From Psammoneis japonica (taxonomy: Eukaryota), in the NCBI GenBank assembly GCA_008632985.1, contig QPGO01000256.1, positions 62,001 to 87,288 of the forward strand: a DNA stretch of 25,288 nt. The letters are read 5' to 3'. The translations under genes were made by a program, and so were the position numbers. Below, in pieces: positions 2,308 to 25,168 of this stretch; positions within the stretch are counted from its first letter, which is position 1, and each line of letters starts with the position of its first letter. The notes beneath the pieces are model-generated. The model searched no databases and had not been told where the DNA came from. It was given only the letters and a program-made list of their open reading frames with translations.

Positions 2308-2569
2308 ACGAGACGAGGACTGTTGGTAGTTCATGAACATATACTGTGCTCTACATTTAGTTGTTTTGAAACTTTGATCGGGATAGTCGACTCTGCATGG
2401 CCTATAGCGTTTCTTTAGTCGACAACCCTATGCCGTCACATGCCGATGCGACTCCATGACGCATATTTTGATTTGGCACACGATGGTGGAGCTGCAGCAA
2501 CTACGAGATAATCAAAGCAGAATGAGCTTGACAATGTCATACAGAATTCTCTGCTCAAAACTGTGGATA

Positions 2570-2642
2570 TGACGTGAGTGATAAGTGATGGTTCGAAGAT
2601 GCGAAGCCTAATATAATACACCACCGCTGACGTCTGACGTCA
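2570..2642 (+). promoter_or_regulatory. Cluster of TGACGT (bZIP CRE/aureochrome-type) motifs upstream of the FG-GAP gene
   Basis: TGACGT at 2570-2575 and 2628-2633, TGACGTCA at 2635-2642, about 115-190 bp upstream of the ATG at 2758. Confidence 0.35.
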
Positions 2643-2757
2643 AGAAACGAAAGGAGTTCTCATTTTTCTGAGAAACGCGACACTTGTTCACATAGATGAT
2701 GATCTTTATTTGTCACATTCTCTTGTTCTCGCTCGTTTCAATAAACCAAAAGTAAAC

Positions 2758-5235: not shown

Positions 5236-5439
5236 AAATTGTACCTCTTATGTTCTTCCTTTCCTATCGGTTGCACTGCATTTGTAATTCATTTCATGGC
5301 AGTGCAAGGACGGCAACATCGACATCAAGGGACGATGAGAGTTGCAATCAGCTTGATCTTGAACGCATTTCGCATTGCAAAATTAGTTCGCACAAATCTC
5401 TCATCAGCGCACCAACCACGAGTGGCTCCATCATAATGA

Positions 5440-8200
5440 TGGCTCCACACAGTGTGTTTTGCCAGAGTCCATTTGGCAACAGCCTAAAAAAGCAGGACAT
5501 CTTCCTGAAGAAGATGTGCATTCTTGTTCAGAAAAAAATGTCCGCATTGCTAGATTGTTTTGCTTTAAAATTTTTTGCTGGTGGCATCAAAACTCACTGC
5601 TTTTGGATCTCATTAATCTTGTCTGCTTCTGTTTCTTTGAGGTTGGCACTCAATTTTGCTTGAGCAAGATCCCTCCAAGCCCTCTTTCTGGCAACAAATG
5701 TGACACCTGCCCAAGGATGTGAGAGGAGTGAGGTGCATCTGTCCTTCCCCAATGCAGCTTCAATGGCTGATCACCACCCATGCTGCTCAGGGGTTTGTCC
5801 TGCTGTGTTGGAGGTGGGTTTTGGCAGAGTGAACTTTTGCCAGGGTGGTTGACACAGCTCGTCCCCAACTTTTGTTGCAGCCTTTTTCACCAGGAGTGGC
5901 CACAAATTCACAAGCAAAGAGGTGCTGCTGTCAGCTGCTGTGGCATCACATTGATCCAAAATTGAGAAAGCAGCGTGGTTGCTCAGGGAATTCACCAGAA
6001 GCAAGACTTGGTGCCATTTTCAGACTGGTTTCATGTGCACACTTGTGCTTTGGCACAGATGCCATTTTGCCAGTTTTTAATTTGTTGCTGTGATGCACAG
6101 CAGCCAGTGTCAAGTGACAACAGTCATTTCTTTTCATTCTTGGAGAAGCATTGGATTTCTGATTGGCAACGTTCATTGGCTTGTCTGCACTGGATGTGGC
6201 TCCATCATCTGTGAGTTTGCCAATGTCACACTGGACTTTTCCAAAGCTGCAAAGTCCACCTGGTGGTGGTGACATGTCAACTCACAAGGCTAGAGTTGGT
6301 GGTGCTGGAGCAGAGGCAATTGGATCCAGGGGATGCACCTTGTTGTGTCCCATGCCATGGACAAGCAGGCATCGGCCAAGTCAACCACAGTTTGACAAGT
6401 TCCCATGCAAAAGAAGTGTGGTGAGCTCTTGGTCCAGCCCGTGGGGAGCACCAGCAGCAAGGCCACCAGTGGCTCCTCTCCCAGTCCCAAAGGGAAAGCT
6501 GTTCTGAGCTTGGCCATGTCCTCCAGGCACAACCCAACTCTGCAGAATCTGTCCAAGAGATCCAGATCTATCATGTGAATGAATCTGCTTGGAGTGTGTT
6601 GCAGAACACTCAATCCAGTGCATGGCCAAATTGCATGGCCTCCAGTGGAGCAGGCTTGTGTGTCTTGTTGTTGAGACCACAGATGCTGCCTGCAACCAAC
6701 CCCACGGTGCAGTCTCCAGTGGATGGATGGCTGCCACAATCAACAGCCACCCAAATCTTGGAGGATGCCCTGTCTTCAGCAGTGAGTTGGACTGGGGCTC
6801 CATCACAGCAAAGACTTTCCAACAGCCTGGCAGCTGGATGGGGCAGCTCACTCACAGACCATGGTGCCAAATGAACTCCCTGTGTGGATGTTTCTCAAAA
6901 TGGAGCCAGCCTGAAGATTGTGAGAGTTTGATGCCTTCAACCACTGACTCACTCCAAGGGGGCTGCTGGTGTTGGTCAGGCAAGTTGGCAGGTGAGGGCT
7001 GCAGGTGAGTCCACTGACTTGCTGCTGGCCCAACACTTCAGGTGGAGAATGCCGCCAGTGTGGCTGCTGGCACCACCACTCCATCATCTTGAGGGTTGGG
7101 CAAATGTTCATGTGCAAAGGCACTCATGGCAGTGTGCTCACATCATGGTGCTGGGTTGTGACAGGTGCCACATTGCTCACAATTTGTCAAAGCACGTGCC
7201 TTTGAGAGGACAGTGGGAGAGGCAAATCTCACATGGGGCTCCACTGATGTTTGTTTGTTGAGGTGCAAAGCACTGCCACAGAGTGAGCAAACAAATTCCA
7301 GCCTGTTCTCACAGGGCCGGGGTTTGTGACAGCAGCTCCAATCATGCCAGTGGAGAGTCAACACTGCCTTGGGGATCCTTGGTTGATTTTGGACCCTGGC
7401 CCATCAGATGGGTCAGAAGTGAGAGCACACACTTTGTCAGGTGTTGGCAAGCAGTCTGGAATGCATGGGACTCCTCCTTGCATGAGTCAGCACAAGACTC
7501 CAGTCATGATCTGGATGACCTCTCAGCAGATCCACGGCAGAACATTGCCTTTGAGAACTCTGTGTGCTGGACTGTTTGAGAAGATCCACCACCATGTCCC
7601 GCCAGTCTTCCTGGCAGAACTCATTGCCTTGAAAACCAAAGATGTGCCCATCCTAAAGGTGAGGTTGTGACCAACTGTAAGTGGGAGAGGGTGACAGATG
7701 CAAGTGACTTGACAGCCGGCACACTGCAGCTTGGCAGTGCACACATGGCCACCGCTCTCTGGATCATGCACAAGAAGCAGGTGTTCCAGAGTGCAAGTGT
7801 GGAAGCCACAAACATCCATGGCACAATGGCTGAGGAGGTTGGTGGTGCATTCTCCACCCAAATGATTGCTTTGATCATCTGCTTGTCTTGAGAGTTTTGG
7901 GAGGTGCGAGTGTGGTGCTTCAGCAGCTGTGAGGGGGACAACAGGAGCCACGCTGAAGCATGGTGTGTGTCACTTTCTTTTTCAACATTGCAACTGCTGC
8001 TGTGGTCAATGGGTGGCAACAAGTTGCAAAACAGAATGCCATGGCATTCCGATCCGTTCAAGGTTGTGGGCGGGGCCAGCCATCCATGGCTGGCCTGGGC
8101 CAGGCACGGGCCGTACCTTGCCAGACACGTCTGTCCGTCCCATCGCAGCTCCAGTTGAGGGAAATCGAAAAGTGGTTATGTCGTACGCAGATCTATGTAG
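5440..8200. mobile_element. Decayed transposon block (boundaries approximate), almost devoid of TpA and CpG
   Basis: Abrupt compositional change between two genes. By hand, 5 TA in 5641-8100 and about 15 CG in 5641-8040. Contains an RT remnant. No termini could be defined. Confidence 0.75.
6370..6860 (-). pseudogene. Frameshifted reverse transcriptase remnant of a tyrosine-recombinase (DIRS/Ngaro-like) retrotransposon
   Basis: Minus-strand fragments LPHPAARLL..L..DGAPV, GLN...APLEAMQFGHALD, IHMIDLDLLDRFCRVGL (cf. KxDLSDGFYR) and AFP.G.GEEPLVALLLVLPTGWTKSSPHFFC (cf. LPMGWxxSPPYFC), in RT order. Recognised from memory, not searched. Confidence 0.7.
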
Positions 8201-8400
8201 GGGCCCTAGGTAGAAATGCACATGAAATTGTACTAAATATCATCTATAGCATTGAGGAGATTCAAATTATATGTAAATACAATTTTGAATATAATTATTA
8301 CAGTACAAACCCCTGTACATTTCTACACAACTCCATTTCCCGCGGTTTTTGCCTCCAGAGAAAAAATGATAACCTTACTCTCTCACAACAAAGCAACACC

Positions 8401-11400
8401 ATGGACGACGACTCGAATCTTTTACCGTCCGACAACATCATGCCTACAATGAAAAGTCGCAACAACAACGACGACGACTCGAGTAGTACTATCAGTAGTA
8501 GCAGTGACTCGTCGTCGTCCTCCGAAAGCCACGACGATTCGTCCAGCAGTGACGATGATGATTCTTCCGCGAGCAGCACCAACGACGTGGAGATGAATCC
8601 TTCCATCATCCATCAAGACTCCACCAACAATACAATTCCTGCTACGGTCGCGACGACGACGACGATACAACGACCAAGTCCGGTACAAAATCCATATCGT
8701 CCTTCCAAAGTAGAACCTCATGCTTCCACCGCTACGAGTGCTCCACGTACAGATTCTACGACGAGCAACAACGGTACTGCTTTGTCATTCCAAAAGAAGA
8801 AAAAGAACGAACCCACCGCATCCGTTTTTCCAAAAACTACCGCGTCCACTTCGCTTGTTCCGCCACATCGTCAAGAACAGAAACCACAAGTACCAGCCTC
8901 GACGGACGATTTGTTATCGTGCTTTTTTCAAGACTCCACGACGACCAACAACGACAACTGCGGTAGTAGCAGCAGTGCTTTTTTTGACAAGCACAAGCCG
9001 ACAGTAGCTGCATCTGATCTTCCGATCGCTACTTCTGCTTCGCAGCCGTCTCGTAAGCAACAAGAACAACCAGCACCATCACCCGCCGTCAATAGTACTA
9101 CTACTCCAGACGATTTCCTGTCGAGACTTGAACATGAGTCGTCATCCATTCCACAAGCTCAAGTCATCAATCCTCAAGAGATTCTTGCTCGTCGATGTTG
9201 TTCCAACAAGAATACTCCAGTATCCTCCAAAAAGCAACCCGTCGTTGTGCATTTATTGACACGCCAAACCCGTCCCAACCGTCCGTGTCTTGCAGTCAAG
9301 CAAGTGTTCGCCAATAATCATCATGATGGTGCAGCACAAGACTTGTTTCCATTCCAACAGTTCAATCCCATGCAATCGGAAATGGCATACCGTGTGGTCA
9401 ATCATAATAATTCGTCTCCAAAGAACATTGTTCTTTCGGCACCGACGGGAGCAGGCAAGACGAGTATTTTTGAAATGGCCATGGCGCGCATCATCTTGTC
9501 GTCGTCGTCGAACCAACAAGAACAACAAAAAATGGTGTACATGGCTCCAAGCAAGGCACTCTGTCAAGAGCGTTTCGAGGATTGGTCTAAGCGATTTGGA
9601 ACTCGAATCCACATTGCAGTGTTGACGGGAGACACTCTTGATGAGCAAGAATCGGCCTTTGCGACATTGGCATCGGCACAATTGATTTTGACCACACCGG
9701 AAAAATGGGATTCACTATCTCGGACATGGACGCATCATCACTTTGACCTGTTTGCCGCTGTCAAATTGTTCATGTTGGATGAAGTCCACTTGTTGGGTGA
9801 TGCGAGCCGTGGAGCGTGTTTGGAATCCATCATTTGTCGAACCAAAATGATTCAAGAAATCGTTCAAGCCTGCAAGGATGTGAACGGGTGAGTACAACGC
9901 AAGTTGAGCATTTGTACCGTAGTATCGCTTTTGTATCATTTCAAAACAACTCACCGACTCGTATCTATTTTTTCTCCGTCTAATGTCATACTACAGTTTC
10001 TCCCACGACACTCTTCCACAGCCATCAATACTCCAATCGGATTTACGAATCATTGCCGTTTCGGCCACACTTCCCAATTTGGCTGATATCGCTTCCTTTC
10101 TTCAAGCCAACGAGTGTTTTTGTTTTGACGATTCCTATCGTCCCGTTCCACTCACCACGCACGTGGTGGGATTGGGAAACATAATCAAGGGCAACACCTT
10201 TCTCTTTAATAGGAGTCTCAACAAACACGTGTCGCAAATCCTACAGCGCTTTTCGAGAAACAAGCCAAGCATTTGCTTTTGTCATACCAAAAAGGAAACG
10301 GAGCAACTCGCCGTGGAGTTGGCAGCGTCAAATAAGAATCCAAAGGAACCGAGGGCTCTACACACCCTCGCAGCCAAGACCAAGGTAGTGCAGTTGCAAA
10401 AGTGCTTGATGGGGGGATTTGCCTATCATCATGCCGGACTGGATGCCGACGATCGCAAGCTTGTCGAAAACGCCTTTGTGGCGGGTCAAATCTCATGTTT
10501 GTGTGCCACATCGACACTGGCCATGGGTGTCAATTTACCAGCGCACCTTGTCATCATCAAGGGCACGAGCGCGTGGCGTGGACAAGGAGGTCATCAAGAC
10601 GTGGATCGAGCGCAATTGTTGCAAATGATGGGACGAGCCGGACGACCCGGTTTTGATACCAGTGGGACGGCCGTCATTATGACGGATCACGCCTCCAAAA
10701 GACGTTATGAACAAGTCTCAAGTGGACTGTTGTCCACCGTTGAAAGTCAATTGCCCAATTCCTTGGTGGAGGTCTTGAATGCGGAAATTTCACAGCGAGT
10801 CATTGGATCCGTCGACCAAGCCATGTCGTGGATCAAGAAAACTTTTTTCTATCGTCGAGTGAGAACCAATCCGTCTCATTATGGTATGCTTATCAGGACG
10901 CCGGCGGATTTGGATGCTCAACTGCGGGATCTCGTTGTGCAGTCGATTGAAACGTTGAGCAGGCAAGGAATTGTATCAATTACTAGCAACGAAACGGTGG
11001 TTCCAATGCACGCCTCTCACGTCATGAGTCAGCACATGGTGGACTTTGATGCCATGAAGAGGATTGAGTGTCTACCGCACGATGCGGGACAACTCGACTT
11101 GCTTCAAACCCTGACGGAAATAGAAGGACTCCACCGACCGGTCCGTCGCGACGAGAAACGGAAGCTAAACAATATCCACAAAATGATTCGGTATCAGCTT
11201 CCCGGCCCACCCAGCAAGATTCGCATTCAAACTCCGCAACAAAAGGCCTTTGTCTTGTTACAAGCCGCCATTGGACAGCACAAATTCGACGACTACACGC
11301 TCCGTCAAGAAGTATCGTCTGTGGTGGAGTATGCGACGCGCATGTTGACGGCGGCCCAAGAGTACAGCGTGGACGCAAGCAAGCACGGTCAAGTGGCGCT

Positions 11401-13472
11401 GCAGAGCTTGCGGTTGCGACGGTCGCTGGCGACCAGCCTTTGGGGTGCTGGCAAGGAGGGGTTGGTTCTCAATCAGCTCTTGGGCATTGGGCTCAACACG
11501 GCAAAGAAGCTGAAATTCAACAAGATTCTGTCCTTTCAGGATGTCTTGCATACTTCGGCCGAGGATATTGAAAAGGCGGCGGCTCGATCTGGTGGATTCG
11601 GAAAGGACCTGAGGGTGGTGGTATCCAAGATTCTCAAGAGTACTCTTACCTTGACGGCCAAGGTGGAGAACGATAAAGATTCGAATCATTCTAAAGAGAT
11701 TGTTTGTACGTTTGCCAAAAACACCAGCTACGACGCCTTGATGGAGAGTTCCGCGTCGACTGGTAAGGACGCCACTGCCAATACCCGTCTCGTTACGTAC
11801 ACTCTTGCAGTTTACACGGATCGGCCAGGCGGATGTCTCCTGTTTCAGTCCAACATTGCTGGTCCCGGCGAGTACCGAATTCCGTGCCCGCCCGAATTCG
11901 GAAAAGTGTTTGTTCACGCCGTGTCTAATCTTGTTGGGCTTGACGAGTATCTTGAACTCCAGGGAAACGCCGAGGTGGTGAAATCCAAGTTCACCGCAAA
12001 CCCACTAAAATCAAAGGAATCGAAAAAACCGCGCAATACTTCCAATGCGTCCATCGACACGAAGAAAATGGCTCCCTCTCATTCTCAGTTTCGAGACTGC
12101 GTCAAGAACGTTGGAGACTTTCGTATCAAGAGCAAGCCCCCAGTGAAAAGCAAGAGATCATTGTTTCAGGGAAGCAAAAAGACTCCTGCAAAGGGAACCC
12201 ACGCAAATGGCAATAGTAATTTGACAGTCACCCCGTCACCGCCGCCACTGAGTATGGCGGCGGGTAGCGCCAACACTACCGTCGAGCGTGCTCCGCAGCC
12301 AATGGCTACAAGTACCAGAACATTCAATAACAACAGCAACTGGAGCCCACCTCGAAATCGCACACCACCGAGAAGCGCTGCTAGGTCAACATCGTCGGAA
12401 GCCAAGCCGTGGAAGAGGGCGAAAACCGAACAAAAGAATCTTCAGAAGCGAGCATTTCGGACCAAGAGCGAGAATCCTTTTGCGGAGTATTCGTTCGACC
12501 CGTGAGTAGAATTTCTCGCTTTTTGATCTGCACGAACTTTTGTTGAACTCGTTGTGCTCACTCTCTTTCGCTTCATCTAATACATTCAGGAATGACATTG
12601 AAGGCACCCTATTTCAGGCTGCCACAAAAAGCCAAGGGGAGCATATTCAACAAGAGGCACCCTCCGTGATCCCTCCCGGCACGTTTGAATCATTGCGGGC
12701 CGCTCACCAAACTCCGCAGTACCGACACTCGAGCGCCCCCTATGGGGCATCGGGAAGGGTGTTTAATCGCGCATTCAACACCGGACACCGCAAGAGAAAG
12801 GGAACAGGCCCGCGAATTCCAGAGACGGAGCTACTTCATATGAAAGCCGCGGAGCAAGAGAGACATGCACGAGAGCAACTTCAAAATAGCAGCCGGCGCC
12901 ATGACTCTCAGCAGTCAGGCATCTTTTTAAAGATGAGGAACGCCAGGCCAACTGTCTTTCCTCAAAACCATCCGTTCAATGACAATGTCTGCGGTGGTTC
13001 TAACATGATGGAAGAGTCGCTTGCTTCACCACCTCGATGCAATGACAGCTTGGGAGGGTCTATGGTTGCTGATGAGTGGGGTCCGCCGGAGCCAAGCTAT
13101 CGGAACGCACAAGGAAACTTTCAAGACGAAAGAGGTGCAATGCCCTGGTATGGATATTCTCTTGGTGCAGAGCCACCCAAGTACGGAGGAAACATAGCTA
13201 ACGAGCCCGTATACACTGGCGATTCCTCGACATGGGATACTTTCGAGACCCAAGGGGATACATTCGTCGGCCAAGAAAACCGACCAATCGGTTCGCAAGA
13301 TGAATGGCACCAGTCTCAACCAGTGGTGTACAGAGTACCAGTAGAAACTTCCAGGACCCCAAGAGGCGTAGTAGAGCCCACCCCAAGGTCCAGCTTTATT
13401 GAGCAGCAACCGAATTCACAACGTTCAAAGAGAAATTTGGAGGAAGAGAAGCTGCTCGAAGCTTTTTTCTAG
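8401..13472 (+). CDS. MER3: Meiotic DExH-box Ski2-like DNA helicase MER3/HFM1 with Sec63 domain; exons 8401-9887, 9997-12501, 12590-13472 (1624 aa)
   Basis: Motifs FNPMQSE, SAPTGAGKT, MAPSKALCQER, TTPEKWDSLSR, LDEVHLLGDASRGACLE, IIAVSATLPN, YHHAGL, TSTLAMGVNLPAHLVIIKGT, QMMGRAGRPGFDTSG, then a Sec63 region. Introns 9888-9996 and 12502-12589 (both GTGAGT...CTCAC...CAG, phase 2) join three ORFs in frame, 4875 nt total. The start codon is the likeliest choice, not proven. Confidence 0.9.
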
Positions 13473-13558: not shown

Positions 13559-16500
13559 CTATCGCCACAACTTGATTGCCCCATCATATGAGCAACTGAG
13601 TAAGGTTCTTATGGGATACGAGATCATTTTCAAATCTGTAATAGAGTCATGATGTTTCGTTTCAGGTTTGGAAAGACCCCGCTGAAGCTTTCGCGGAATT
13701 TTTGAACTCTCAATTTCGCCGACACCCAAAGGCTCATTTTCCCTGCAAGTAATGAGTCGGCCGTAGTCAAAGTCGACACGAGCAAAGGTAGGCCTCTGTT
13801 GCCCCCCACTAATCGTATAACATTTCGTCGGAGACAAGAAATCAAAGTAACGAATATGGCAGTCGCTGCCTCCTGTTATGAGGTAGTCCCTCTTTTCGTG
13901 GCCACCAACGCTACCAACCATTCCCGTCATGCGACCTTTCGAGGCCGTGGATGCAAAATCAAAGCTATCAGGTAGACGGATATGCTTTCTCATCGATCGA
14001 CTGTGGTAATTCGTTGTGATTGGCACCTCGCGAAGAGACGGCAATGTTGTTGCTGGTGGATCCATGTATCCAGTACCAGGCTCAATGACGCGGAAGCATT
14101 GGCAACAGCTACTGCTTGCAATATCAAACATGGAGCACTCGTTGGGGCCGCATGCTGCAAACATGTACGGGCGTGCGTCGTTACTCGAGACGTTGTGCCC
14201 ATGAGGTAGTGCTGAATAGGATGTCGCAAGACGGTTCACAGGAGAAGCGCTGCTATGCTGCCACAGCTTTACCATTTGCTGAAACCGTATATCCCACAAG
14301 GCAAGGAACCCACGACTTGTACCAGTCACCATCCAATGACGATCGTTACCAAGTGACATGCTCGTCAGATACCCAATGTCAGGCCGGTGTTTCAAGATAA
14401 AGGGCTCTCTTGCACTTCTCAAGTCCCATGAATGAACCAAACCTTTTTGAGTGGCAAAGGATAGGATGGACGCAGAAGGGGTATTGAAATGAGAAACAGC
14501 AAGTACTTCTCCTTCCACTGGATCGATTTTGCGAATAAGACTACTTCCTGAAACCCTTGACATTTCGTACGTGTCACTGGTTCCTGCAGCAAACTTTTCC
14601 GCGATTTTCTTACTCGTTGTCACTGCGTCAACACGCCACACGTGCACAGACCCGTCACTGGCACCAGAAACTACAGAATGACTATTCTCGACAATTGCAA
14701 CATCATTGATTCGGGGATAGGCATGGCCTGCATCCTCAGTGTGACCAGAATAAGTCAGACTGCTCTCGAGAATCCCGACAGAGTCTTCTGCTTGTCGAAG
14801 CTCCCAAACACGACATGTACCATCGTGACTTGCTGATACAAAAAAGCCTTGATCTTTTGTAACCGCCAGTCGAGATACAGGAGCAGAATGGCCACTTTTC
14901 AAAGAGCTACTGGCTAAAAGGGCATCAGATTTTGGTCTCCATTCTCTAGATGACGTATCCTTGGGAGAAGCGGACGATGGGCGCTGAGATGTCACGGCTT
15001 GTCGACTACGTTCGCGTAGCACACCAAGGTTTGGAGGGAGTGGCGGCACGCTAAGGCCTTTCAACTTCGATGTGAGTAACATGGTATCGACATCGGACGG
15101 GTCCAATCGCGCTTCTGCGCCCCATTCACCAGTCGACGCAGAATCGATAACTTTCGATTCCGATGATGTCAGGATTTGCTTGGCATCGGCTTCTGTCAGA
15201 CGCTTGTCATCCGGAAACACGTCACCCTCTGAAGTCATGGCAGCGTCTAGCAATGCTTTGTCCTCTTCCGCTGGAGTTGACAGAGGCATGAGGGAGAGAC
15301 CATAGACCTTGCTCAGTGTAGCAACAGAGCGAATTCCGCATGTCTCGGAGCAATACGACCCATTGCTCTGAGAAAAGTCTCTCAAATCACTATACCACAT
15401 TGGCAAGTGAGCCGATCTCTGACCAGTGTATCTTTGGCTTGGAAACTTGACCTGTTGAGCGAGTTTCGGGTTACCTTCGATTGCATTTGCAAGATTACTC
15501 CGGAGAAATTCCTTCCGAGAAAGCGGGTCAAATACAAGTTTTCGGCTTCTCGACAACATGCGCAGATAGCTCGTGACTTGGCTAGAGTTTGATCCCACAA
15601 GAGGCTGAGAGGGAGAATCAATGCCTGCGGTATGCATATGGCTTGGTCCGTTGCCTCCATCGTTACCATCCTGTACGTCAATACCAATTGATGTCCACTT
15701 GCCCGAAGTCGGCGAGAAGGATTGCAGCTTGTCCAAGTTGTCCAGCTCCTCCCTAAGCCTTTCTTTTGTCCAAGGAGGATATAGGCAAGCTCTTAGTCCT
15801 TCTGAAGTGGTCAAATGGCGTTCCGTCGGTTCAAACCTTAGATATGGTCGAAGAAGAGGCACCAAGAACACATCTCGATCTGGAAATCCCATGGCCACAG
15901 AAGCTGCATTGACCAACTTGATGGCCCCGTTGCGAACATAAGCTGACGGGTACAACAAGAGTGGTGAGTACCTTTCAAACAAACCAATGTTCTTCCCGTT
16001 GCTTCTCGAACGACCCGTGGCATCAGCTTCTGAAGAGTACGCCGGCGTCCCGACAAGAGCGGAACGTGAAAGCAATCCCAATTCAACCAACGCAGCCAAG
16101 CATAGCAGTGCCTGACTCATGACTAGGTCTTCACCGTCCACGAGTGCAGTCTCCAAACAGGGCAATACAAAGTGCTCTGTGGCAGCCCTACCGACAATGA
16201 AACAGAGCGAGGGTAAATGTTCAAAGAGCGACGCCCGCAATTGCCAATCTCGTCGATCATTAAGAAAGGCAAGAATCTGAGGCAAAATAAATGCAATGAC
16301 TCCGTCACGACCAAAGAAGTTACACAACCGCGGCAAATCATGGAGCAAGCCCAACTTGGGTGGAGACGATTGCTCCGACTGATCGGTAGCAATATGCATG
16401 ACCCACCGCGACACCATTTCATGCAGACCGGCAAGTTCGACATTGTACGTGTTGCTAATGAGCGTCTTGTCACCGGCCGATGATGTAATCTTTTGGTTTT

Positions 16501-18757
16501 CCAAAGGAGTCGACGACCCTGACGATGCCTTTGCATTGTCCAAGCCTATCGAACCGCTGTCGTGCGGACTCTTTTTGCTACTGCTATTGTCATCTCCCAA
16601 GAGATTTGCAACATCATCGGCAAAAACGTTATCCTTTGTTTCGTCCTTTGCTTCCTTGGTTTCATGGGCATGACTTGCACCACCACCACCCACGGCTTCG
16701 TAAAGTCGTACAGCATGTGATATATCCAAGAATCTCAAAGACGTTTCCGCCAAGAGCGGAATGCATTCGGAAAATGCAATTCTCACGACAAGCGATTGAT
16801 CCGTCAAGAGATGAGCCACACGTTTAAATATGTATTGCGGAAACACTTTTGAATCCGACGGCGCAAAGCTCTCGATCCGTGCCAAGGTACTCGTGAGTAC
16901 ACGAATGGCACCGGCTCTCACAAGGGCGTCTTGATCGTGCAACAAATCAATCGTGGTGGGTACAATGCGTTGCAGACGAGCATCGTCGGTACAAGCATGG
17001 CGGCCAAGCCGCTGCAAGAGTTGCAATCCAACAAATTTGCTAGACGGCCGTTGGACGTGACGAATCGTGACGAGAATCAATTGCAAAAAGAGCAAAAGGG
17101 AACTCTTGCAAGATGGAGACCGGGACTCGTTCTTGTCAGTCACGTCGGTAGGAGGCTTTGATTCATCATGATGCTCTGGCTTCAACCGGCCTGCCGCTTC
17201 AGGTTCCGGTGCGACGACATTATCAATGGTTAGAGAATCTAGCTTGTCAAGCAATTCTTGGGTTTCCTTCATCAACTTGTCCAGGTCATTCTCTTGTGGA
17301 TGGTTATCTTTGTCCCCGCCTACATCTTGTTGTTGTTGTAGATCCGTCTCCTTGATATCTTCGTCGTCGTCCTCATTCTTGTCCAGCTTGATAATGGTTT
17401 CACCCAAGATTTGATCAAAATAGGCTTGTCCAGTCTCATCATGAATACCAAGACAGGCAAACAATACTCTATCATAATAGGAGGCCGCCATGGCAATACG
17501 AGCATCGGGTGTAATGACTGTTTGGTTCTTGGGAGCACAAATCACCTTTTGAAACAGCTCGGTAAACAAATCAAATGTCTCCGGCATGACGGGGGACCAA
17601 GAAGTGGATGGCTGTGACGTTGTTATGTTTTTTGCGTCCGAGGTTGAAGTACTCCTGTCAGCGTCTCTTCCACTACTACTCCCTTGTGGTTGTTGTTGTT
17701 CGAGTCGTTGCAAATACTCCTTTGCCGACAGTCGCTCTTTGGGATTTAAATGCAACATGTGTCGACAGGCAGCACGGGTCGAAGACGATTCAATCTTGTG
17801 TAGATTGGATAAAAGTGCCGCCGTCAGGGTGCCCTGTCGACGATATTCCATCAAATCCCCCAAATCCATGGCACGTTCACCGTTCAAAAAGAGTTCCATC
17901 ATGCAACAACCGACACTAAAAATGTCACTGGCCGGTGTCAATCGTGTCAAGCGTGTGTTGTTTGTTTCTGTGTTTTGAGCCGTAATAGTAGATGTTCTCG
18001 AGGGAGTATAGAAACGTTCCGGTGCCAAATAACAACGCTTTTCAGCACGCGGTGACGTTGTTTTTGTTGTGGAAGAATGTTGTTGTAATTGTTCTTGAAA
18101 ATAATACAAATACATGGACGGATCATCATCGGGTAAGGCCGTCACGTTGTGTTTATAGGATGAAACATCCAACAAAATTACATGATTCCAACTCGTCAAA
18201 CCGATATTTTCCGTTGTGAGGAAACCGTGCACCACGTTTTTATCATGCAAGTGTTGTACCGCACGCAACAATTGTCGCAAGACCCATTGTTTTTCCACAA
18301 CGTGCAAAAAGGGCCGACACGCCAATCGATCCGACAGTGTCGTGTACACGTGACTTCGCATGACATAAATCGGAATCATGGTGGCATTCGGATTGGCAGC
18401 AGCCGTAGACATAGGAGTCCCCACTTTCCAATACAAAAAAGGTGCCACATTTACCGAAGCATTATCTCGTAGTACTTGTTTGATGCGACGCAATTCAGCC
18501 TCTTGTTGTTCCAACGATTCCTCCAATTGCTTTGCAGGTACATACATGGACTTGACGACTACCAAATTACCAAGGGATGAATTCTTGAGCAAAAAGGTTT
18601 TGGACATGCGGCCCGAACCGGGAACCAAACGTTGCTCCACACTGTAGTTGGGAAAATTCCCAGCCAAGTCCAACTCCTCGTCTTGTATTGAGATTGTTGT
18701 TGTTGCACTTGTTGTTGTACTTGGAGGAGTGGATGACGAGGAGTGATGAGCGCCCAT
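13559..18757 (-). CDS. VPS15: Phosphoinositide 3-kinase regulatory subunit 4 / Vps15 (kinase-like domain, HEAT repeats, WD40), 1732 aa, apparently intronless
   Basis: MG start (MGAHHS) matching the myristoylated Vps15 N-terminus. Motifs TLSDRLACRPFL..VEKQW, LPDDDPS, RCYLAPERF, DIFSVGC, RLQRIVP, FPQYIF, AFLNDRRDWQLR, and WD40 motifs FVSASHDGTCRVWE and SCSYDGAIKLWR. Confidence 0.95.
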   Translation of the reverse strand: MGAHHSSSSTPPSTTTSATTTISIQDEELDLAGNFPNYSVEQRLVPGSGRMSKTFLLKNSSLGNLVVVKSMYVPAKQLEESLEQQEAELRRIKQVLRDNASVNVAPFLYWKVGTPMSTAAANPNATMIPIYVMRSHVYTTLSDRLACRPFLHVVEKQWVLRQLLRAVQHLHDKNVVHGFLTTENIGLTSWNHVILLDVSSYKHNVTALPDDDPSMYLYYFQEQLQQHSSTTKTTSPRAEKRCYLAPERFYTPSRTSTITAQNTETNNTRLTRLTPASDIFSVGCCMMELFLNGERAMDLGDLMEYRRQGTLTAALLSNLHKIESSSTRAACRHMLHLNPKERLSAKEYLQRLEQQQPQGSSSGRDADRSTSTSDAKNITTSQPSTSWSPVMPETFDLFTELFQKVICAPKNQTVITPDARIAMAASYYDRVLFACLGIHDETGQAYFDQILGETIIKLDKNEDDDEDIKETDLQQQQDVGGDKDNHPQENDLDKLMKETQELLDKLDSLTIDNVVAPEPEAAGRLKPEHHDESKPPTDVTDKNESRSPSCKSSLLLFLQLILVTIRHVQRPSSKFVGLQLLQRLGRHACTDDARLQRIVPTTIDLLHDQDALVRAGAIRVLTSTLARIESFAPSDSKVFPQYIFKRVAHLLTDQSLVVRIAFSECIPLLAETSLRFLDISHAVRLYEAVGGGGASHAHETKEAKDETKDNVFADDVANLLGDDNSSSKKSPHDSGSIGLDNAKASSGSSTPLENQKITSSAGDKTLISNTYNVELAGLHEMVSRWVMHIATDQSEQSSPPKLGLLHDLPRLCNFFGRDGVIAFILPQILAFLNDRRDWQLRASLFEHLPSLCFIVGRAATEHFVLPCLETALVDGEDLVMSQALLCLAALVELGLLSRSALVGTPAYSSEADATGRSRSNGKNIGLFERYSPLLLYPSAYVRNGAIKLVNAASVAMGFPDRDVFLVPLLRPYLRFEPTERHLTTSEGLRACLYPPWTKERLREELDNLDKLQSFSPTSGKWTSIGIDVQDGNDGGNGPSHMHTAGIDSPSQPLVGSNSSQVTSYLRMLSRSRKLVFDPLSRKEFLRSNLANAIEGNPKLAQQVKFPSQRYTGQRSAHLPMWYSDLRDFSQSNGSYCSETCGIRSVATLSKVYGLSLMPLSTPAEEDKALLDAAMTSEGDVFPDDKRLTEADAKQILTSSESKVIDSASTGEWGAEARLDPSDVDTMLLTSKLKGLSVPPLPPNLGVLRERSRQAVTSQRPSSASPKDTSSREWRPKSDALLASSSLKSGHSAPVSRLAVTKDQGFFVSASHDGTCRVWELRQAEDSVGILESSLTYSGHTEDAGHAYPRINDVAIVENSHSVVSGASDGSVHVWRVDAVTTSKKIAEKFAAGTSDTYEMSRVSGSSLIRKIDPVEGEVLAVSHFNTPSASILSFATQKGLVHSWDLRSAREPFILKHRPDIGYLTSMSLGNDRHWMVTGTSRGFLALWDIRFQQMVKLWQHSSASPVNRLATSYSALPHGHNVSSNDARPYMFAACGPNECSMFDIASSSCCQCFRVIEPGTGYMDPPATTLPSLREVPITTNYHSRSMRKHIRLPDSFDFASTASKGRMTGMVGSVGGHEKRDYLITGGSDCHIRYFDFLSPTKCYTISGGQQRPTFARVDFDYGRLITCRENEPLGVGEIESSKIPRKLQRGLSKPETKHHDSITDLKMISYPIRTLLSCSYDGAIKLWR

Positions 18758-18952
18758 GACTGAACAAAGAAAAGAGTTATAGAGTAGCAATATAAAGTGG
18801 CTGTGTTGTAAGGATGATAAAAAATCAGAGCATTCAGAGTGATAAAGTAACTTGGCTGTCCGATTCAATCTTGTGATGTGTTTGTCAGTATGATTGGGTG
18901 ATTGGTGCCCACAGATATTGAGCCCCAAAAGACCGTTTTGCACCGAAGATAA

Positions 18953-19899
18953 CCCTTTGACACATGGCCACTGTTATTTGGGGCCTGGCCCCAAATAATG
19001 CGCCATTCTGATTGGTCTAAATAAATAAATCCACAAGTAAATTTTGGCGGGAAAATAACGGCTAAATCGCTTGGGGCCTGGCCCCAAATGCACAAGGTTC
19101 GAGTGACGAATGTGCTCGAGGCATTGAAAGATTTTCATGGCTGTTTACGTCGATTGTTGCACTGGTGTGTTGAGCGATCACACGCGAAAACCCAGACGAG
19201 AAAACGAGATTTTTTGCCTCCGCAACAGCATCCATAGATGGCGACTCGACCGCCATTTCGGTGGCCGGAGAAAATGGCGGGAAAGCTGCAACCGTCATGC
19301 AGGAATCTCAGATTTCAGAATTGTTTGTTGGTGGAAACAAAAAATGAAAAGGAGTGGTTGAAAGTGCCGCATGGCAACAAACATCAAACCACCACAAGTT
19401 TGATTCTTGTTCTTGCTTGTTGACACAAAGTCAAATCTTACGGTGCCAAAATGATCAACAATCAAAATGAAAGTTGCGATGTAGATAAACCAAGCATGGT
19501 TGTTTTGATCGTGTTGTTTTCATTCATCTCAGACAACAATGAGGTGCTCGCCGTGTCGCGAACCTGACATTGTCGACTTCCCCCTGATTTGCCATGTTGT
19601 TTGCTCATCTGTGATTGACACACCGTTGATTTGGATGGAAAACAACCATGTGGCTAAAGTGACAACCAAACAGACACACATGAACACACAGAGTTCATGC
19701 TGTGAAGACCTGTCAGAACAGAGAGCAAATGGGGTCTCGCGTCCTGAAACCGCCATCATCGAGTCGTCGTGGTTCCCGTTTGCAAGAGCAGGCATCGTGC
19801 TCAAATCATGGTCGTCAAGATTCTGTCAGACAAAATGTCTGACCGTTAAATTCTCATTTGGGGCCTGGCCCCAAACAAGCAATTTCATGTGTCAAAGGG
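18953..19899. mobile_element. Non-autonomous piggyBac-like DNA transposon (947 bp), 195 bp upstream of the VPS15 start
   Basis: Perfect 14-bp TIR CCCTTTGACACATG (18953-18966) / CATGTGTCAAAGGG (19886-19899). At both ends a 7-bp spacer is followed by the palindrome TTTGGGGCC(T/A)GGCCCCAAA, with a third copy at ~19071-19088. Flanks are ATAA (18949-18952) and ACAA (19900-19903), consistent with a mutated 4-bp TSD. CCC...GGG ends suggest piggyBac. No transposase recognised. Confidence 0.8.
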
Positions 19900-19903
19900 A
19901 CAA

Positions 19904-20562
19904 CAGACGGAAAATCTGAAAAATGCACGCACACACGAAAAGTGGGGGATGAGCACGCAGGCAACTCTTTACAAACTGTGCAGGAAATGTGCCAGGGTTT
20001 GTGTAGAATTTGACAATGACACAATTCCATTTTGATGGCGACAAGTGGAAACACACATGGTTTTCCAGTGCAAATTTGACAGCGACGCCACAGACGGAAT
20101 CATTGTCAACACACCAAAAACTGCATCAGGTTTTCGATCACAGGGAATTCCTTGTTTGGCGCTTGACTTCCCCAGACAAGGAAAGACAAGGAACCAAGAA
20201 AAGGAAAAATTAATTGGTCATTCAATGTGCAGTTGCAACCATCATGATCCTTTCATCCAGCTAGAAGTTGATTTGTCCAGAGCCTCTGGCTGCCAAAACA
20301 CCTCTTTTTGTGCAATGCACTCAATGGGTGAGGCAGACACCACTGGGGGGCACTTTCTCAAGGACAAAAAGATGTGCTTCCACGGGGTTTCTTCAAGTGC
20401 AATCTGCTTGAAGCAAGCCCACAAAAGCTCAAGTTGGTGTGGCAAATCTGGCGCACATTGTGCAACAAAACAAAAGAGGAAAGCCTCTTTGTTTCCTTCA
20501 TTCAACAAGCCAATGAGGGGGGAATCAAGATGTCCCGTGAGCATGAGAGCGGGGTTTTGGGT
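19904..20562. other. TpA-depleted decayed sequence of unidentified origin, probably another repeat fragment
   Basis: Same compositional signature as the flanking transposons; no protein motif recognised. Confidence 0.4.
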
Positions 20563-20841
20563 TGACAGAAATTGAAGGGCAAATGGCAAGAATTCAAACA
20601 ACAACTCCTCACTGCTGTCTAAATGGCAGATGAGTCTCCACTCAGAGACCGTCACAGGAGCCAAAAGACGTGCAAGTCGGCACAATCGGGCTGCTGTTGT
20701 CATTCTTGTGAGCTGTGTGGCTCAAAAGCAAACTGCATCGCATGCACACGTGTGGAGCTGAAGAGCACAAAAAACTGTGTGCGGTGAACTAAATGGCATG
20801 CGACATTTTGCGCACACCCAAATCTTGTTCAAATCCTGTCA
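20563..20841 (-). repeat. 3' LTR (279 bp) of the copia remnant, preceded by a polypurine tract
   Basis: Minus strand reads ACTGGGGAG (PPT, 20842-20850), then TGACAGGATTTGAA...TTCAATTTCTGTCA, with TG...CA ends and short terminal inverted repeats. Lies just downstream of the RNase H remnant. Confidence 0.9.
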
Positions 20842-21241
20842 CTCCCCAGTTTGCTTGAGGAGTCACAGAAACAGATTCGAAGTCGGATTGGTTGAAAGCC
20901 TTGGGATCGAAGTTCCAAAACATTAGAGGATGAAGGAGGTTCCAGATTTGGGAGCAACCCCAATGCTTGCTGAGGATGTCAGCCGGGTTGCGGGAGCCTT
21001 CGATGGAATGAAACCTGAGGAAACCGGAGGCAATCGCCTCACGCACATGATGGAATGAGAGGGTGGTGTGTCACTTGTGCAACTTGGAGTGCGGGATGGC
21101 AGCACTGTCCACAACCGACTCTTGTTGTTTTCAGGAAGATCATCATTTGCAGGCCACGGAGAGACACTGCTCCGGAACAGACAATGTCGACGGGCCCGTC
21201 TGTGAGGTGTCCATCAGCAACAAGCCTTGCTTTGTGCCGTC

Positions 21242-21638
21242 GACGCGTTCCAGATGCAGGTGGGAATCCGTGTGACATTGGGCCCGTAGACTTCTGCATG
21301 CGGAGCTCCGCAGTAAAATCACACGGCAATTAAAATGTCAATGATCGCCAACAGAAAATGAGGCAATTTTGCGAATGCACAAACTCACACATGATTGAAG
21401 TGCATCATTTTTTACTTGGCCAGTTGCATTCTTCAGACATTGAAGAATGTAACTGGCGCACTGTTGTTTCTATAAATTTGTCATATAAAACGTCTGGGGC
21501 TTCGCAAAACAGCGAGTCTGGACAATTTTTTTTAAATGTCACACGTAGAAATCTACGTGCAAAACACACGACGGATGACAAAAATTGTTGTTGTCACACG
21601 TCAGCACTGCGAGCTCCCACCTGGGGCTGGAACGCGTC
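21242..21638. mobile_element. 397-bp MITE nested in the copia RT, 4-bp TSD
   Basis: TIRs GACGCGTTCCAGatgCAGGTGGGA / TCCCACCTGgggCTGGAACGCGTC. TSD CGTC at 21238-21241 and 21639-21642. Excision restores DVKHDG-R-HKARLVADG. Confidence 0.9.
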
Positions 21639-21943
21639 CGTCCATCATGTTTGACATCACAGATGAGATGCACCCGGATCTTCTTGTGTCCTGATGGAGC
21701 ACTGGAATCATTGTGGTGTCTGCAGTTGTGGAAGACCTTGCACTCATCAAGCTGTCAGACAACGCCACAGAGCCCGCATCATCAAAGCCATTGTGTCTCC
21801 CCACTTGCGGTTGCCATTGCACTCATCAAGGGCCATGGCATGCTTGCAGTCCCGTGGCACTTCATGCCCGTGCTTGCATCATGGCACAGTGCAAAAGGAG
21901 CGCAACTTGGCTTGGTTGGCCATGCGGAACAGCTTCTTCTGAT

Positions 21944-22222
21944 TGACAGGATTTGAATGGGATTTGGGTGCACGCGAAATGTCGCACGCTGTTTAGTTTG
22001 CCGCACACAGTTTTGTGTGCTCTTTAGTTCCGCGCGTGCGCGCACGATGTAGTTTGCTTTTGAGCCACAAGGCTCACAAGAACAATGACAGCAGCCCAAT
22101 TGTGCCGACTTGCATGTCTTTTGGCTCCTGCAACAGTCTCTGAGCAGAGACTCATCTGCCATTTAGACAGCAGCAAGGAGTCATTGTTTGAATTCTTGCC
22201 ATTTGCCATTCAATTTCTGTCG
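21944..22222 (+). mobile_element. Solo LTR (279 bp) of the same copia family, inserted in opposite orientation into the pol region
   Basis: Colinear, gap-free match to the reverse complement of 20563-20841. TSD CTGAT at 21939-21943 and 22223-22227. Removal restores GWRRFCKMTLH-QKKLFRMANQAKLRS. The terminal CA reads CG. Confidence 0.93.
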
Positions 22223-23680
22223 CTGATGAAGGGTCATCTTGCAAAAGCGTCTCCATCCTTTGGTTTCTAGAAGGCCGTGCTCACGCACGCAGACAGCACA
22301 GGTGATGGGGTTGTCCTTGGCAATGACGGCAAGGGGTTCGGACGTGATCTCCCCATTCTCCCATTCAAGCATGACGTTGCAGCTTGAGCCTTTCCAAGAG
22401 GGATCATGGGGTTGCAATGGTCCCTCGTGCAACACGATGCATCGGAACTTCCAGAGGGCAGTGTCCTCGTCTTCTTGCTCAATGTGGTGCATGATGTCAT
22501 TGCAGGCCAGGACTTCCTCACATTCGTCATTGTTGATGGAGCAAATGAACTTGACCAGTTCAGGATTGTCTCCGATTTTCCAGTCATGGTCCTCAACGGC
22601 TTTGACGATGCGGGCTCTGTGGCGTTGTCCATCCTCTTGTGGCTTCATGAGGAAGGTGCGTTCTGTGATGTCCTTGGGGTCAAAGACCGGCATTTTGGGC
22701 ATCCTGATTGCCTCCCCATCTGGTGAATCTGGCAAATCCTGGGAGTCGTGGCGGGATTTAATGACAGGTTCAGCAGATTTCTTGTCAGGAGGATCAAGAT
22801 GCAGGTTTGGAGCAGAGATGGATCACGGGCGGGGCGCACGTTGGAACGGCAGGGAATCTTCTGAGTGTCGTCAGAAAGAATCTTGACCATCATTTGGTGG
22901 CCAATGTGCTTGGCAATGCCAACGTCAGTGTCATTGGGCTTCGCGTTGGAGCGGGCAGAAGGTGCAAATCCGGGAGGTTTCTCACCTGAACGGGCAGAAG
23001 GAGGCCGTTCAGGTGCCAGGAAACGTTGCAAGTCACCGGGTGGCAGGGGCTTGCGCCTGGTGAGATGAGCCAGAATGGGGTTGGCATCGGCTGCATCGCC
23101 ACCTACGAGCACAAATGAAAGTAGAATCAAGCATGAAAAGTGAAAATTGTGAGATTGAATTTTGCTCTGTGATTTTTGGTTTCTCCGAATGAGCTCTCAA
23201 TGGCCTAAAGCTTCTGCACTGCTTCTACAGACAAAAGGCCTTTCGGAGAATATATTCGTGACAACAGATTGTCCGGATGCGATTGCTGTTGACACGTAAG
23301 ATGTCAACATCGTCAATCGATCGTATTTGCAATTTTCGACATCCGATCAACTCTGTGTGGCATCGTTCTGTCCTTTGTACGCATCCACGACTGTGGTACG
23401 ATTGACATATATAATATATAATTCCAAATATGTATATAACAGTCGCATGCTGCATTCGCCTCCCTAATTGCGCATTAGAGTTATTCGTTAAGTGGAATAA
23501 TTTGACTGACATTGACACTGTCAATAATGTCTCCACGTTAACTGTATTGTGCCATTAGCAATGACTGTTGTTGTTTTATATTATAGGCCAGCATAGGGCC
23601 GGCCGTTTCACTTTCCAAATGTCTTTCGAGAGTGTCATGGTTTGTCTCACGCTCTATGTGTATATGTAACGGTGCATGTG

Positions 23681-23694
23681 TATATATATATATA
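23681..23694. repeat. (TA)7 microsatellite within a TA-rich island
   Basis: tatatatatatata. Confidence 0.7.
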
Positions 23695-24341
23695 AATATA
23701 CTGTAGTATTGCGTCGAGTGGACAGAAGGAGCAATTGTCCTGCTGTTCTTTCATGGTATCGATTGTACATAGCATTCTGCCCAGCACTCGATGTACAGTG
23801 CGCTCCTAATTGGCGTTCACTTACTTTACTTACTTGTGGATTTCGCCATATTGCTCTATTGCACTACCACGTTTCATAAGTAGTAATTAACGATGGTCAA
23901 GGATATGACCATTTCGTCTTGACATTCAATCCTGTGATGGTTGTGAATTCCATCATGGATTTTTTGTACTTTAACCATCTGTCAGTTGGATTTTAATCGT
24001 CATTTGGACGTTTCTTTTTGACATGCCGGTGTCATTTTGTCTTTCCGAAGGCACTGCTTTCGTGCACTAAGTGGATAATGTCCATTTTTCTTTTCTTTTT
24101 CTGAATCTTTGGCACCCCTGTGGCAGGGGAGCTGTGTGTGTGTGCGTGGTTGTGCGCGCACGGCTTCGCCGTGCGTTGAGTTTTAATGTCAACATCCGCA
24201 CGAATGTGTGTGTTCCACAAGTAAAAATTCCCATTCCACAGCTCCCCTGAAACTCCAACCACCAAAAACCGAGGGGTCGGAAGCGCACTTTCGGGAGCTC
24301 TTTTTCTCCGCACAAAAAACACGCGTTTCATCGACTCGACC

Positions 24342-25168
24342 ATGATGATGCCTCGTAGTTCTTCCCCATCGCCTTCCCAGGACGCCGATCCTGCTGACAC
24401 CGTTGCTGACAACACTGACACAACAGGTGATGTCATCATTCCGGTTCTCGTGGGTGTGACACGCACAAAATAAGATGCTACAAACTCACACTGTTGTTTG
24501 CACGCTCCACCGCCTCCCACAGATGCTGTCACGAATTCCAACACCGCACCTGCGTTTCGGGCCCCTGGCATGCCCGATGCTGTCACTCCTGCCCTTGCTG
24601 CCGCAGGTGCTGTTGATGCTGTCATTGCATTTTGCCAATGACGTCCACAATGAAATGCTGACAACTCACACTTCTTTCATTCTCGCCCCACCGCCTCCCA
24701 CAGATGCCATCACGAATTCCAACGCCGCACCTGCGTTTCGGCCCCCCAGCATGCCCGACACTGTCGCTCCTGCCCTTGCTGCCGCAGGTGCTGTTGATGC
24801 TGTCATTGTCTTTTGCCAATGACGTCCACAACGAAATGCTTGTAACTCACACTTCTTTCATTCACGCCCCACCGCCTCCCACAGATGCCATCACGAATTC
24901 CAACGCCGCACCTGCGTTTCGGCCCCCCAGCATGCCCGACACTGTCAACCCCACCCTTGCTGCCGCAGGTGCTGTTGACACTGTCATTGTTTTTGCTTTG
25001 GAAGGAGCACAATGGATGACGGATGACGGCGGACCAGGAAACCCACGCAACCACGGCCTGCTGATGGACGACACATCAATGGACATGAATGGTGCCTCTT
25101 GGTCAGCTCTCGAGTGCAGTCCAATCTTCAGAATGTGCAGGCACATTGTGCAGCTCTCTGTAAATTAG
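24342..25168 (+). pseudogene. Candidate spliced gene or pseudogene built from duplicated 84-nt exons; exons 24342-24426, 24523-24606, 24704-24787, 24885-(24968 or 25168)
   Basis: Three 96-97 nt GT...CTCAC...pyrimidine-rich...CAG segments, all phase 1. Splicing gives MMMPRSSSPSPSQDADPADTVADNTDTT then three copies of DA(V/I)TNSN(T/A)APAFR(A/P)P(G/S)MPD(A/T)VxP(A/T)LAAA. Lies in TpA-depleted DNA, so probably repeat-borne or dead. Confidence 0.5.
24470..24996 (+). repeat. Tandem repeat, 181-bp period, about 2.9 copies
   Basis: CCGCCTCCCACAG ends at 24522, 24703 and 24884. GCCGCAG|GT junctions at 24606, 24787 and 24968. Confidence 0.92.

Follow-up and report, generated by a model that had tools for sequence, protein, structure and literature searches.

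One-sided TpA and CpG changes in a transposon copy upstream of VPS15 in Psammoneis japonica

How can a single transposon copy, inserted once, come to be mutated at one end and intact at the other? This question is raised by a stretch of the Psammoneis japonica genome (assembly GCA_008632985.1, contig QPGO01000256.1, positions 62,001 to 87,288 of the forward strand), whose whole length of 25,288 nucleotides is referred to here as the window and numbered from its first letter. Within it, a non-autonomous DNA transposon begins 195 bp upstream of the start codon of the gene for VPS15 and extends away from that gene as far as a block of other repeats. The third of the element that faces the gene retains every TA and CG dinucleotide found in the majority of other copies, whereas the two-thirds facing the repeats carry private changes of these dinucleotides to TG or CA, and the boundary between the two states lies inside the element.

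Private changes on one side of the element

The element and its parts are as follows.

18949-18952: left flank, ATAA, presumed 4-bp target-site duplication
18953-19899: element, a 947-bp non-autonomous DNA transposon with terminal inverted repeats (TIRs) and palindromes
18953-18966, + strand: left TIR, CCCTTTGACACATG
18953-19260: unmutated third, with 10 TA and 19 CG, all as in the majority of copies (best 40 of 195 differing places)
18974-18998: left subterminal palindrome, perfect (12+1+12), TTATTTGGGGCC T GGCCCCAAATAA
18999-19068: TA-rich spacer between the two left palindromes
19069-19091: second copy of the palindrome core
19261-19899: mutated two-thirds, with 17 private changes of TA or CG to TG or CA plus two palindrome sites, 28 TA or CG kept, and a TA observed-to-expected ratio (O/E) of 0.10
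19854-19878: right subterminal palindrome, imperfect, both outer TA changed to CA, TCATTTGGGGCC T GGCCCCAAACAA
19886-19899, - strand: right TIR, complementary to the left TIR at 14/14 positions
19900-19903: right flank, ACAA, presumed copy of the target-site duplication with TA>CA

Other copies of the element were seen through the Logan contigs of one public sequencing run, taken at a likeness of at least 80% and not as aligned full copies. This run contains 0.70 of the sampled words of 18400-20400, and 445 contig pieces were placed on that interval; two further public runs yielded one contig, in the left flank only, and none. Across the left flank (18400-18935, eight bins) the summed contig depth is 169-299. 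It steps at the left TIR from 299 (18869-18935) to 1137 (18936-19002), ranges from 770 to 2441 inside the element (1137-1916 in the left 308 bp), falls to 708 in the bin containing the right junction (19874-19940) and rises to 1661-5046 across 19941-20400. By these depths, the element is several-fold repeated and the VPS15 side is single-copy, the sequence to the right of the element being a different repeat. No contig in the runs compared joins 18952 directly to 19900, as would be expected of an empty-site allele, although this does not constitute evidence that such an allele is absent.

The letters of the contigs differ from this copy at 195 places, of which 163 are transitions. A change was considered private where TG or CA in this copy corresponds to TA or CG in the majority of the others; such changes were classified by dinucleotide context and scored from the 40 best-supported of the 195 places, 28 of them inside the element, and this scope applies to all of the counts that follow. 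Three differences are listed in the left 308 bp (19007, T/C; 19191, C/A, resting on one contig; and 19235, T/A), and none of them leads from TA or CG to TG or CA. The right 639 bp contain 25 listed differing positions. Ten are sites with TG or CA here against CG in 81-100% of the depth, and four are sites with CA or TG here against TA in 68-100% (19525, 19667, 19682 and 19696). Three adjacent doublets, TG in one version and CA in the other, account for six more (19444/5, 19540/1 and 19757/8), and the occurrence of opposite doublets in different copies implies that their ancestor had TA or CG. The five others are differences outside this class of pyrimidine-purine (YR) exchange. Thus, 0/29 TA or CG sites have changed on the left and 17/45 on the right (Fisher p 1e-4), a contrast that sharpens when the two right-palindrome sites are included (19 changed; Fisher p 2e-5), and the chance of observing no change on the left at right-hand rates is 4e-7. 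The depth carrying this copy's letter at private sites ranges from 0 to 280 and is mostly about 100-200, resembling that of the single-copy flank, so that no other locus appears to share the right-hand variants.

At the right palindrome and the flank, the states of other copies are not among the 40 best-supported of the 195 places. For the palindrome, the element itself provides the comparison: no mismatch interrupts the left copy, whereas two TA>CA changes have cost the right one its symmetry, and the right-hand state is therefore the derived one. Read from its outer end, the left terminus consists of CCCTTTGACACATG, 7 nt and TTATTTGGGGCCTGGCCCCAAATAA (18974-18998), and the reverse complement of 19854-19899 consists of CCCTTTGACACATG, 7 nt and TTGTTTGGGGCCAGGCCCCAAATGA. 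Both palindrome changes, like the change in the flank, are T>C on the + strand.

The two sides differ in YR changes and not in age. Non-YR differences number 3/308 bp on the left and 5/639 bp on the right (p 0.72), and this equality implies that both parts have diverged from the family for equally long, with no recent conversion of either. An initial annotation of this stretch, made from its letters, had described the end sequences (TA kept on the left, both TAs read as TG in the reverse complement of the right end), the flanking letters ATAA and ACAA, and the common age of the two ends, and each of these descriptions agrees with our analysis, the target-site duplication still being presumed. 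The same annotation had named a left-right asymmetry common to all copies as the outcome that would speak against its reading; among the best 40 of 195 places, the CA or TG of this copy instead stands against TA or CG in the others. Its proposal of a position-dependent mutator is supported insofar as there are 0 versus 17 private changes at equal non-YR divergence and the mutated side faces the repeat island described below, whereas exclusion of the mutator from promoter chromatin is a matter of inference.

The private changes are of two kinds that share one edge, 10-13 being of the CpG type and 6-9 of the TpA type. To the right of that edge, the share changed is 30-36% for CG and, relative to the inferred ancestral TA, 55-64% for TA. 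Private A:T>G:C changes include four that are certain at TpA, two in the palindrome and up to three in the doublets, versus two outside TpA (19412 and 19490). On the + strand, the TA changes in the element gave CA in seven cases and TG in three, and CA and TG number 322 and 307 in 19900-23100; strand coordination of the changes was considered and dropped, as these counts are not significant. Protection of TA in a CTA context, suggested by the repeat arms described below, was likewise rejected, a CTAA site being mutated at 19667.

Private changes begin at 19262, just past an intact CG at 19259. Because only part of the right-hand CG and TA has changed, the edge may reach left to ~19200 (cumulative probability 0.05 at 19205). 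The best reading places it at ~19200-19262, which puts it upstream of the VPS15 ATG by 445-505 bp and 250-310 bp into the element. Changed and kept sites in four successive bins beyond the edge number 2/4, 5/11, 6/4 and 6/9, so that the mutated part looks more like a step followed by a plateau than a slope, with the reservation that these numbers are small.

This edge is distinct from the gradient visible in the raw TA content. TA occurs at eight positions in 18975-19063 and thereafter only at 19146, 19235, 19439, 19482, 19486, 19655 and 19847, which gives eight in the first ~111 bp of the element versus two in the last 400 bp. The share of TA among TA, TG and CA is 8/25 in 18953-19072 versus 7/166 in the rest (Fisher p 1e-4), and a change-point computed from TA alone falls at 19063/19072, coinciding with the start of the second palindrome. 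The interval 19073-19260 has a TA O/E of 0.18 and no private change at all. Part of the raw gradient is thus probably intrinsic to the element, since this interval is TA-poor without private change, and the contrast between the spacer and 19073-19260 probably reflects a property of the family, or older changes common to its copies, rather than an event specific to this copy. The initial annotation had counted the TAs correctly (eight early, two in the last 400 bp), and the eight TAs of the first 120 bp are probably those of an intrinsically TA-rich spacer.

Several features identify 18953-19899 as a non-autonomous TIR (class II) transposon: it has TIRs, it is multi-copy and it lacks a transposase. 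Allowing at most two mismatches, the TIR motif has two matches in the window, namely the ends of the element, versus 0.32 expected; the TIRs read CCCTTTG...CAAAGGG, and their 14 bp contain no TA or CG. The GC-rich 19-nt palindrome core TTTGGGGCCTGGCCCCAAA is present in three copies (18977, 19070 and 19857), giving six strand hits in the 25-kb window versus 0.01 expected, all of them inside the element. Six stop-to-stop open reading frames (ORFs) of at least 70 amino acids lie inside or overlap 18953-19899, and none has a Pfam match at E<=0.05. The presumed target-site duplications ATAA and ACAA agree at 3/4 positions, for which the chance is about 5%, and this is the only copy with visible flanks. 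The piggyBac elements are defined by a TTAA target site and by TIRs that start with CCC and end with GGG. The present element resembles them in its CCC...GGG ends, its 4-bp A/T-rich flanks, its subterminal repeats and the absence of a transposase inside it, and differs in that its flanks are ATAA and ACAA and not TTAA. A Pfam search of the window revealed no DDE_Tnp_1_7 transposase. PiggyBac is listed among the class II elements of Phaeodactylum tricornutum (PMC4504042), and our search of the published literature on piggyBac and diatoms found nothing on this element.

The combination of TIR and palindrome was found at 0 loci in a collection of viral contigs and at 0 loci in a collection of metagenome contigs. 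Another 39 metagenome loci contain the 19-nt palindrome and were set aside as unrelated, since in BLAST comparisons with the element and its flanks they share the palindrome only, the longest hit being 33 nt. One 3021-nt contig matches 18951-19090 and 19193-19330, but the 102 letters between them (19091-19192) are replaced by 98 others, which marks a subfamily of the element whose internal segment differs.

The repeat island and a second erased domain

The surroundings of the element include the following features.

5540-8050: second erased domain, 2.5 kb, gene-free, with 8 TA and 17 CG left
7960-9891 and 9983-12505, + strand: ORFs of a helicase with DEAD, Helicase_C, Sec63 and winged-helix domains (Pfam)
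13559-18757, - strand: VPS15 coding sequence (Pfam), first in-frame ATG at 18757, protein MGA...
18758-18952: single-copy 195-bp spacer from the VPS15 ATG to the element, of normal composition (TA O/E 0.67)
19900-23200: TA-depleted repeat island, 3.3 kb, adjoining the element, right edge at 23094-23226
20564-20844, + strand: inverted repeat arm A, 281 nt
21941-22221, - strand: inverted repeat arm B, 281 nt

The mutated part of the element is continuous with the repeat island, in which TA O/E is 0.13 and CG O/E is 0.62 (19900-23100). The corresponding TA O/E is 0.41 for the window as a whole and 0.52 for the VPS15 coding sequence. Two inverted repeat arms within the island, 86% identical and 1096 nt apart, record the kind of change that has occurred there. 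Their 26 difference events comprise nine doublets with CA in one arm and TG in the other, eight exchanges of CG with TG or CA, two exchanges of TA with CA or TG, three transversions, one other transition and three composite events. Each doublet would require two adjacent substitutions, unless an ancestral TA or CG was hit once per arm, on either strand. The doublets between the arms thus indicate that the island was mutated in place after the duplication.

A second domain of this kind occupies 5540-8050, with a TA O/E of 0.05, a CG O/E of 0.10 and a TG+CA O/E that reaches 1.9-2.0; none of its 25 ORFs has a Pfam match. Its edges are sharp. On the left they lie at 5419-5423 for CG and at 5614-5620 for TA, and the right edge, at 8045-8114, leaves 290-355 bp to the inferred helicase ATG at 8401. 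The helicase is probably split by a short intron, and the first 440 nt of its first ORF are likely to be non-coding. Two edges are therefore found at similar distances from gene starts, which is suggestive and no more.

Additional features of the island and its neighborhood were noted. A further inverted pair of 36 nt lies at 21758-21793 and 22594-22629. Immediately to the right of the element, at 19969-19998, six contigs carry a sister version of the repeat that has TCATAAAC, GTGTGGG and GCTGG where this copy has TTACAAAC, GTGCAGG and GCCAGG; TA, CA and TG are exchanged here as they are in the element, in another family of repeats. Two overlapping ORFs of 213 and 183 amino acids occupy different frames of the - strand (22184-23196) where the island ends on the right. 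The larger resembles clusters of hypothetical proteins (Protein Atlas score 0.95) that are commonest in Bacillariophyta, the phylum being known for one member, and it has cysteine at what appear to be former tyrosine places (for example, ...GSSCNVMLEW...). This stretch is likely to be a mutated copy of a repeated gene. A Pfam search of 56 stop-to-stop ORFs of at least 70 amino acids in 5400-8150 and 18940-23200 returned only three sub-threshold chance hits. Just past the right edge of the island, 23350-23900 is TA-rich (TA O/E ~1) with TATATA runs, and the genome thus does not generally avoid TA in its non-coding DNA. At 24503-25045 a 181-nt unit follows in three tandem copies, the later two with 91% and 72% identity to the first; they are very TA-poor (one TA in 24501-25000). 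What they repeat seems to be a unit resembling an exon with an intron, located downstream of an ATG (~24342).

The VPS15 gene was identified by Pfam matches to VPS15-like_hel (1.8e-18), Pkinase (7.2e-11) and WD40 (1.4e-17). One contig skips 123 nt of its Ser/Thr-rich N-terminal coding region (18595-18719) and has 30 other letters instead, which may represent an allelic length variant. Upstream of the gene, the spared left end of the element includes a candidate CCAAT box, read on the strand of VPS15 at 254-258 bp from its ATG (CTGATTGGTC, then TAAATAAATAAAT; 19008-19029), corresponding to ATTGG at 19011-19015. Such a pentamer is expected about 0.6 times in 308 bp, counting both strands, and as a possible sign of co-option it offers only a lead. 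Elsewhere, a query of the Protein Atlas with the helicase returned only Streptophyta, Archaea and similar taxa, and the window also contains a ShK-prolyl-hydroxylase gene (Pfam).

Accounts of the asymmetry

We propose that the element landed at the margin of the repeat block, 195 bp ahead of the VPS15 start codon, and that a mutation process acting on the chromosome stretch, and not on the element as such, subsequently converted TpA to CpA or TpG and CpG to TpG or CpA. Most plausibly, the chemistry would combine adenine deamination at TpA with 5-methylcytosine deamination at CpG, both occurring in silenced, methylated chromatin. The silent domain would have been nucleated on the repeat island and would end ahead of the active VPS15 promoter. 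Its edge would then fall inside the straddling transposon, which for this reason would be erased on one side only: the process would reach the two-thirds nearest the block, with its footprint ending stepwise at ~19200-19262, and leave the promoter-side third untouched. That CpG and TpA losses share one edge fits a silenced, CpG-methylated domain, and the loss of CpG to TpG or CpA may also represent a second, co-localized process. We regard it as reasonably probable that an eraser of TpA and CpG directed at a region follows a silent domain ending ahead of the active VPS15 promoter. A more general form of the proposal, in which the mutator reads chromatin state rather than homology and the edge of the domain is held fixed 300-500 bp upstream of active start codons, is put forward with more reserve, as a possibility of somewhat less than even weight. 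In both forms, three components are inferences: that the changes arose in situ, that the active promoter imposes a boundary of chromatin or methylation, and that a deaminase is the chemistry at work.

Several observations weigh against this account. Its chromatin, methylation and transcription components are predictions from DNA sequence. Ancestral states were taken from the best 40 of 195 places in contigs of at least 80% likeness, and not from aligned copies. CpG-type changes outnumber TpA-type changes, so that the one-sidedness could largely be ordinary decay of methylated CpG. The first 110 bp are TA-rich and 19073-19260 is TA-poor without private change, so that the gradient is probably in part intrinsic. 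About 40% of sites are erased in the right part of the element versus about 90% of TA in the island, and the element may be younger than the island. The match of the flanks at three of four positions is compatible with mutation before transposition to this site, and the comparison of distances to promoters involves two edges, with one of the ATGs inferred.

The role given to CpG decay can be extended into an account that dispenses with any regional process, in which an AT-rich spacer belonging to the family, normal CpG decay and a genome-wide bias against TA together produce the pattern. The window-wide and VPS15 values of TA O/E (0.41 and 0.52), the position of the TA-only change-point at the second palindrome together with the TA-poor but privately unchanged 19073-19260, and the 10-13 private changes of CpG type are all in its favor. 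It would account for part of the TA gradient. It does not explain why 0 versus 17-19 YR changes accompany equal non-YR divergence, why 55-64% of the inferred ancestral TA has been lost from the right part, or why TA O/E in the island and in 5540-8050 (0.13 and 0.05) is far under the genic value of 0.5; nor are CA/TG doublets between the arms expected from ordinary decay at unmethylated TA. We consider this account quite unlikely. Selection rather than exclusion could also spare the left third, if this third serves the VPS15 promoter and lineages in which bursts of mutation reached it were lost. The left end, at 195-500 bp upstream, is close to the ATG of a gene of essential type and carries both ATTGG at 19011-19015 and a TA-rich run, and mutation in Bigelowiella natans comes in line-specific bursts, with up to 45 mutations in a single line, such that selection could act on whole tracts (10.64898/2026.01.13.699255). 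Site-by-site selection, however, would not leave 29/29 TA and CG sites intact, the pentamer is of a kind expected about 0.6 times in such a length, and the equal non-YR rate (3/308 versus 5/639) means that the left part is not visibly constrained. On balance selection is unlikely, if still deserving of attention.

The other two alternatives concern the history of the copy itself. The element might have been half-mutated at an earlier locus and then excised and re-inserted here, in which case its orientation relative to the island would be coincidental. Its perfect TIRs, lacking TA and CG, could have kept a mutated copy mobile, and the evidence from the duplication for change in situ amounts to one base in a 3-of-4 match. 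Yet the private variants occur at about single-copy depth and are shared by no sister copy, the mutated side looks toward the island, itself mutated where it lies, and merges with it, TA>CA is also the change found just beyond the element (ACAA on the right, ATAA on the left), and the matching orientation needs a 1-in-2 chance; an inherited asymmetry thus appears improbable, about as much so as ordinary decay. Finally, conversion or recombination could have brought a clean left part or a mutated right part into a chimeric copy, as might be imagined for a multi-copy family with a step-like edge and with a known variant, the 3021-nt contig in which 98 letters replace 19091-19192. The right-hand variants are nevertheless private at single-copy depth, with no mutated donor seen, and the left part has non-YR differences of its own (19007 and 19235, and also 19191, from one contig) at the density of the right part. 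A chimeric origin is accordingly given very little weight.

Relation to known systems and significance

Repeat-induced point mutation (RIP) of ascomycetes causes C:G>T:A changes, mostly CpA to TpA, and thereby raises TpA and AT content; it is triggered by homology, acts on the whole duplicated segment and tends to spill outward into flanking DNA. The footprint described here resembles RIP in consisting of transitions in a dinucleotide context, on repeats whose exact limits it does not respect. It differs in direction, TpA being erased (O/E 0.05-0.13) with a TG+CA O/E rising to 1.5-1.99 and a GC content of 0.44-0.54, and in target, as the left 308 bp were spared although they are no less repeated than the remainder of the element (depth 1137-1916).

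A closer parallel is offered by the TpA-restricted A:T>G:C hypermutation of integrated DNA of nucleocytoplasmic large DNA viruses and virophages in B. natans (Mettrop et al., 2026 preprint, 10.64898/2026.01.13.699255). In its mutation-accumulation lines, 230/231 changes in two viral regions were A>G or T>C, all at TpA. The rates exceeded background by ~1000-fold, and one of the tracts ran on for ~21 kb beyond the limits mapped earlier for the insert. Coding sequences low in TpA were enriched for transposase and reverse-transcriptase domains, and an ADAT-like adenosine deaminase was proposed by the authors (10.64898/2026.01.13.699255). The two systems share the change of TpA to TpG or CpA and its confinement to a region whose limits differ from those of the element. 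B. natans is, however, a chlorarachniophyte, whereas the genome studied here resembles that of a diatom; a rate was measured there, and a fossil footprint is seen here; its changes are almost exclusively A:T>G:C, whereas 10-13 private CpG>TpG/CpA changes share the edge in the present element; and its targets are viral inserts, in contrast to transposon and repeat DNA. The available passages of the preprint give kilobase-scale coordinates only and draw no relation to gene starts, whereas the edge reported here is located to ~60 bp, within a single element of 947 bp next to the start of a gene. Our search of the literature for TpA-directed hypermutation in diatoms found no paper.

Chromatin domains that might guide such a process have been mapped in P. 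tricornutum, where H3K9me2/3 and H3K27me3 mark mainly transposable elements and H3K4me2 and H3K9/14Ac mark genes (PMC4504042). Silent-mark domains of this kind could guide a region-directed mutator and end before an active promoter, with the provisos that the available passages of that source are silent on mutation and that the species may differ.

As far as our search showed, TpA-directed A:T>G:C hypermutation of a nuclear genome has been reported once, in an unrelated alga, in work whose available passages do not address how its target is delimited. The present locus constitutes a natural experiment on this question, with one element, one insertion age and two parts differing only in position, and its asymmetry implies a process aimed at a stretch of chromosome and not at a sequence family. 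The case brings together an edge a few hundred bases upstream of the start of a housekeeping gene, the use of multi-copy contigs to obtain ancestral states, and the loss of CpG and TpA at one edge. The vague notion of a "reverse RIP" is thereby turned into testable predictions on methylation, histone marks and accessibility at named coordinates. If the proposal is true, a past edge of germ-line silent chromatin would be readable from DNA sequence, to ~60 bp, and transposon ends beside promoters would escape erasure and remain available for co-option. Such sequence footprints could then be used to map heritable heterochromatin edges, and could explain which transposon fragments stay intact enough for co-option as promoters.

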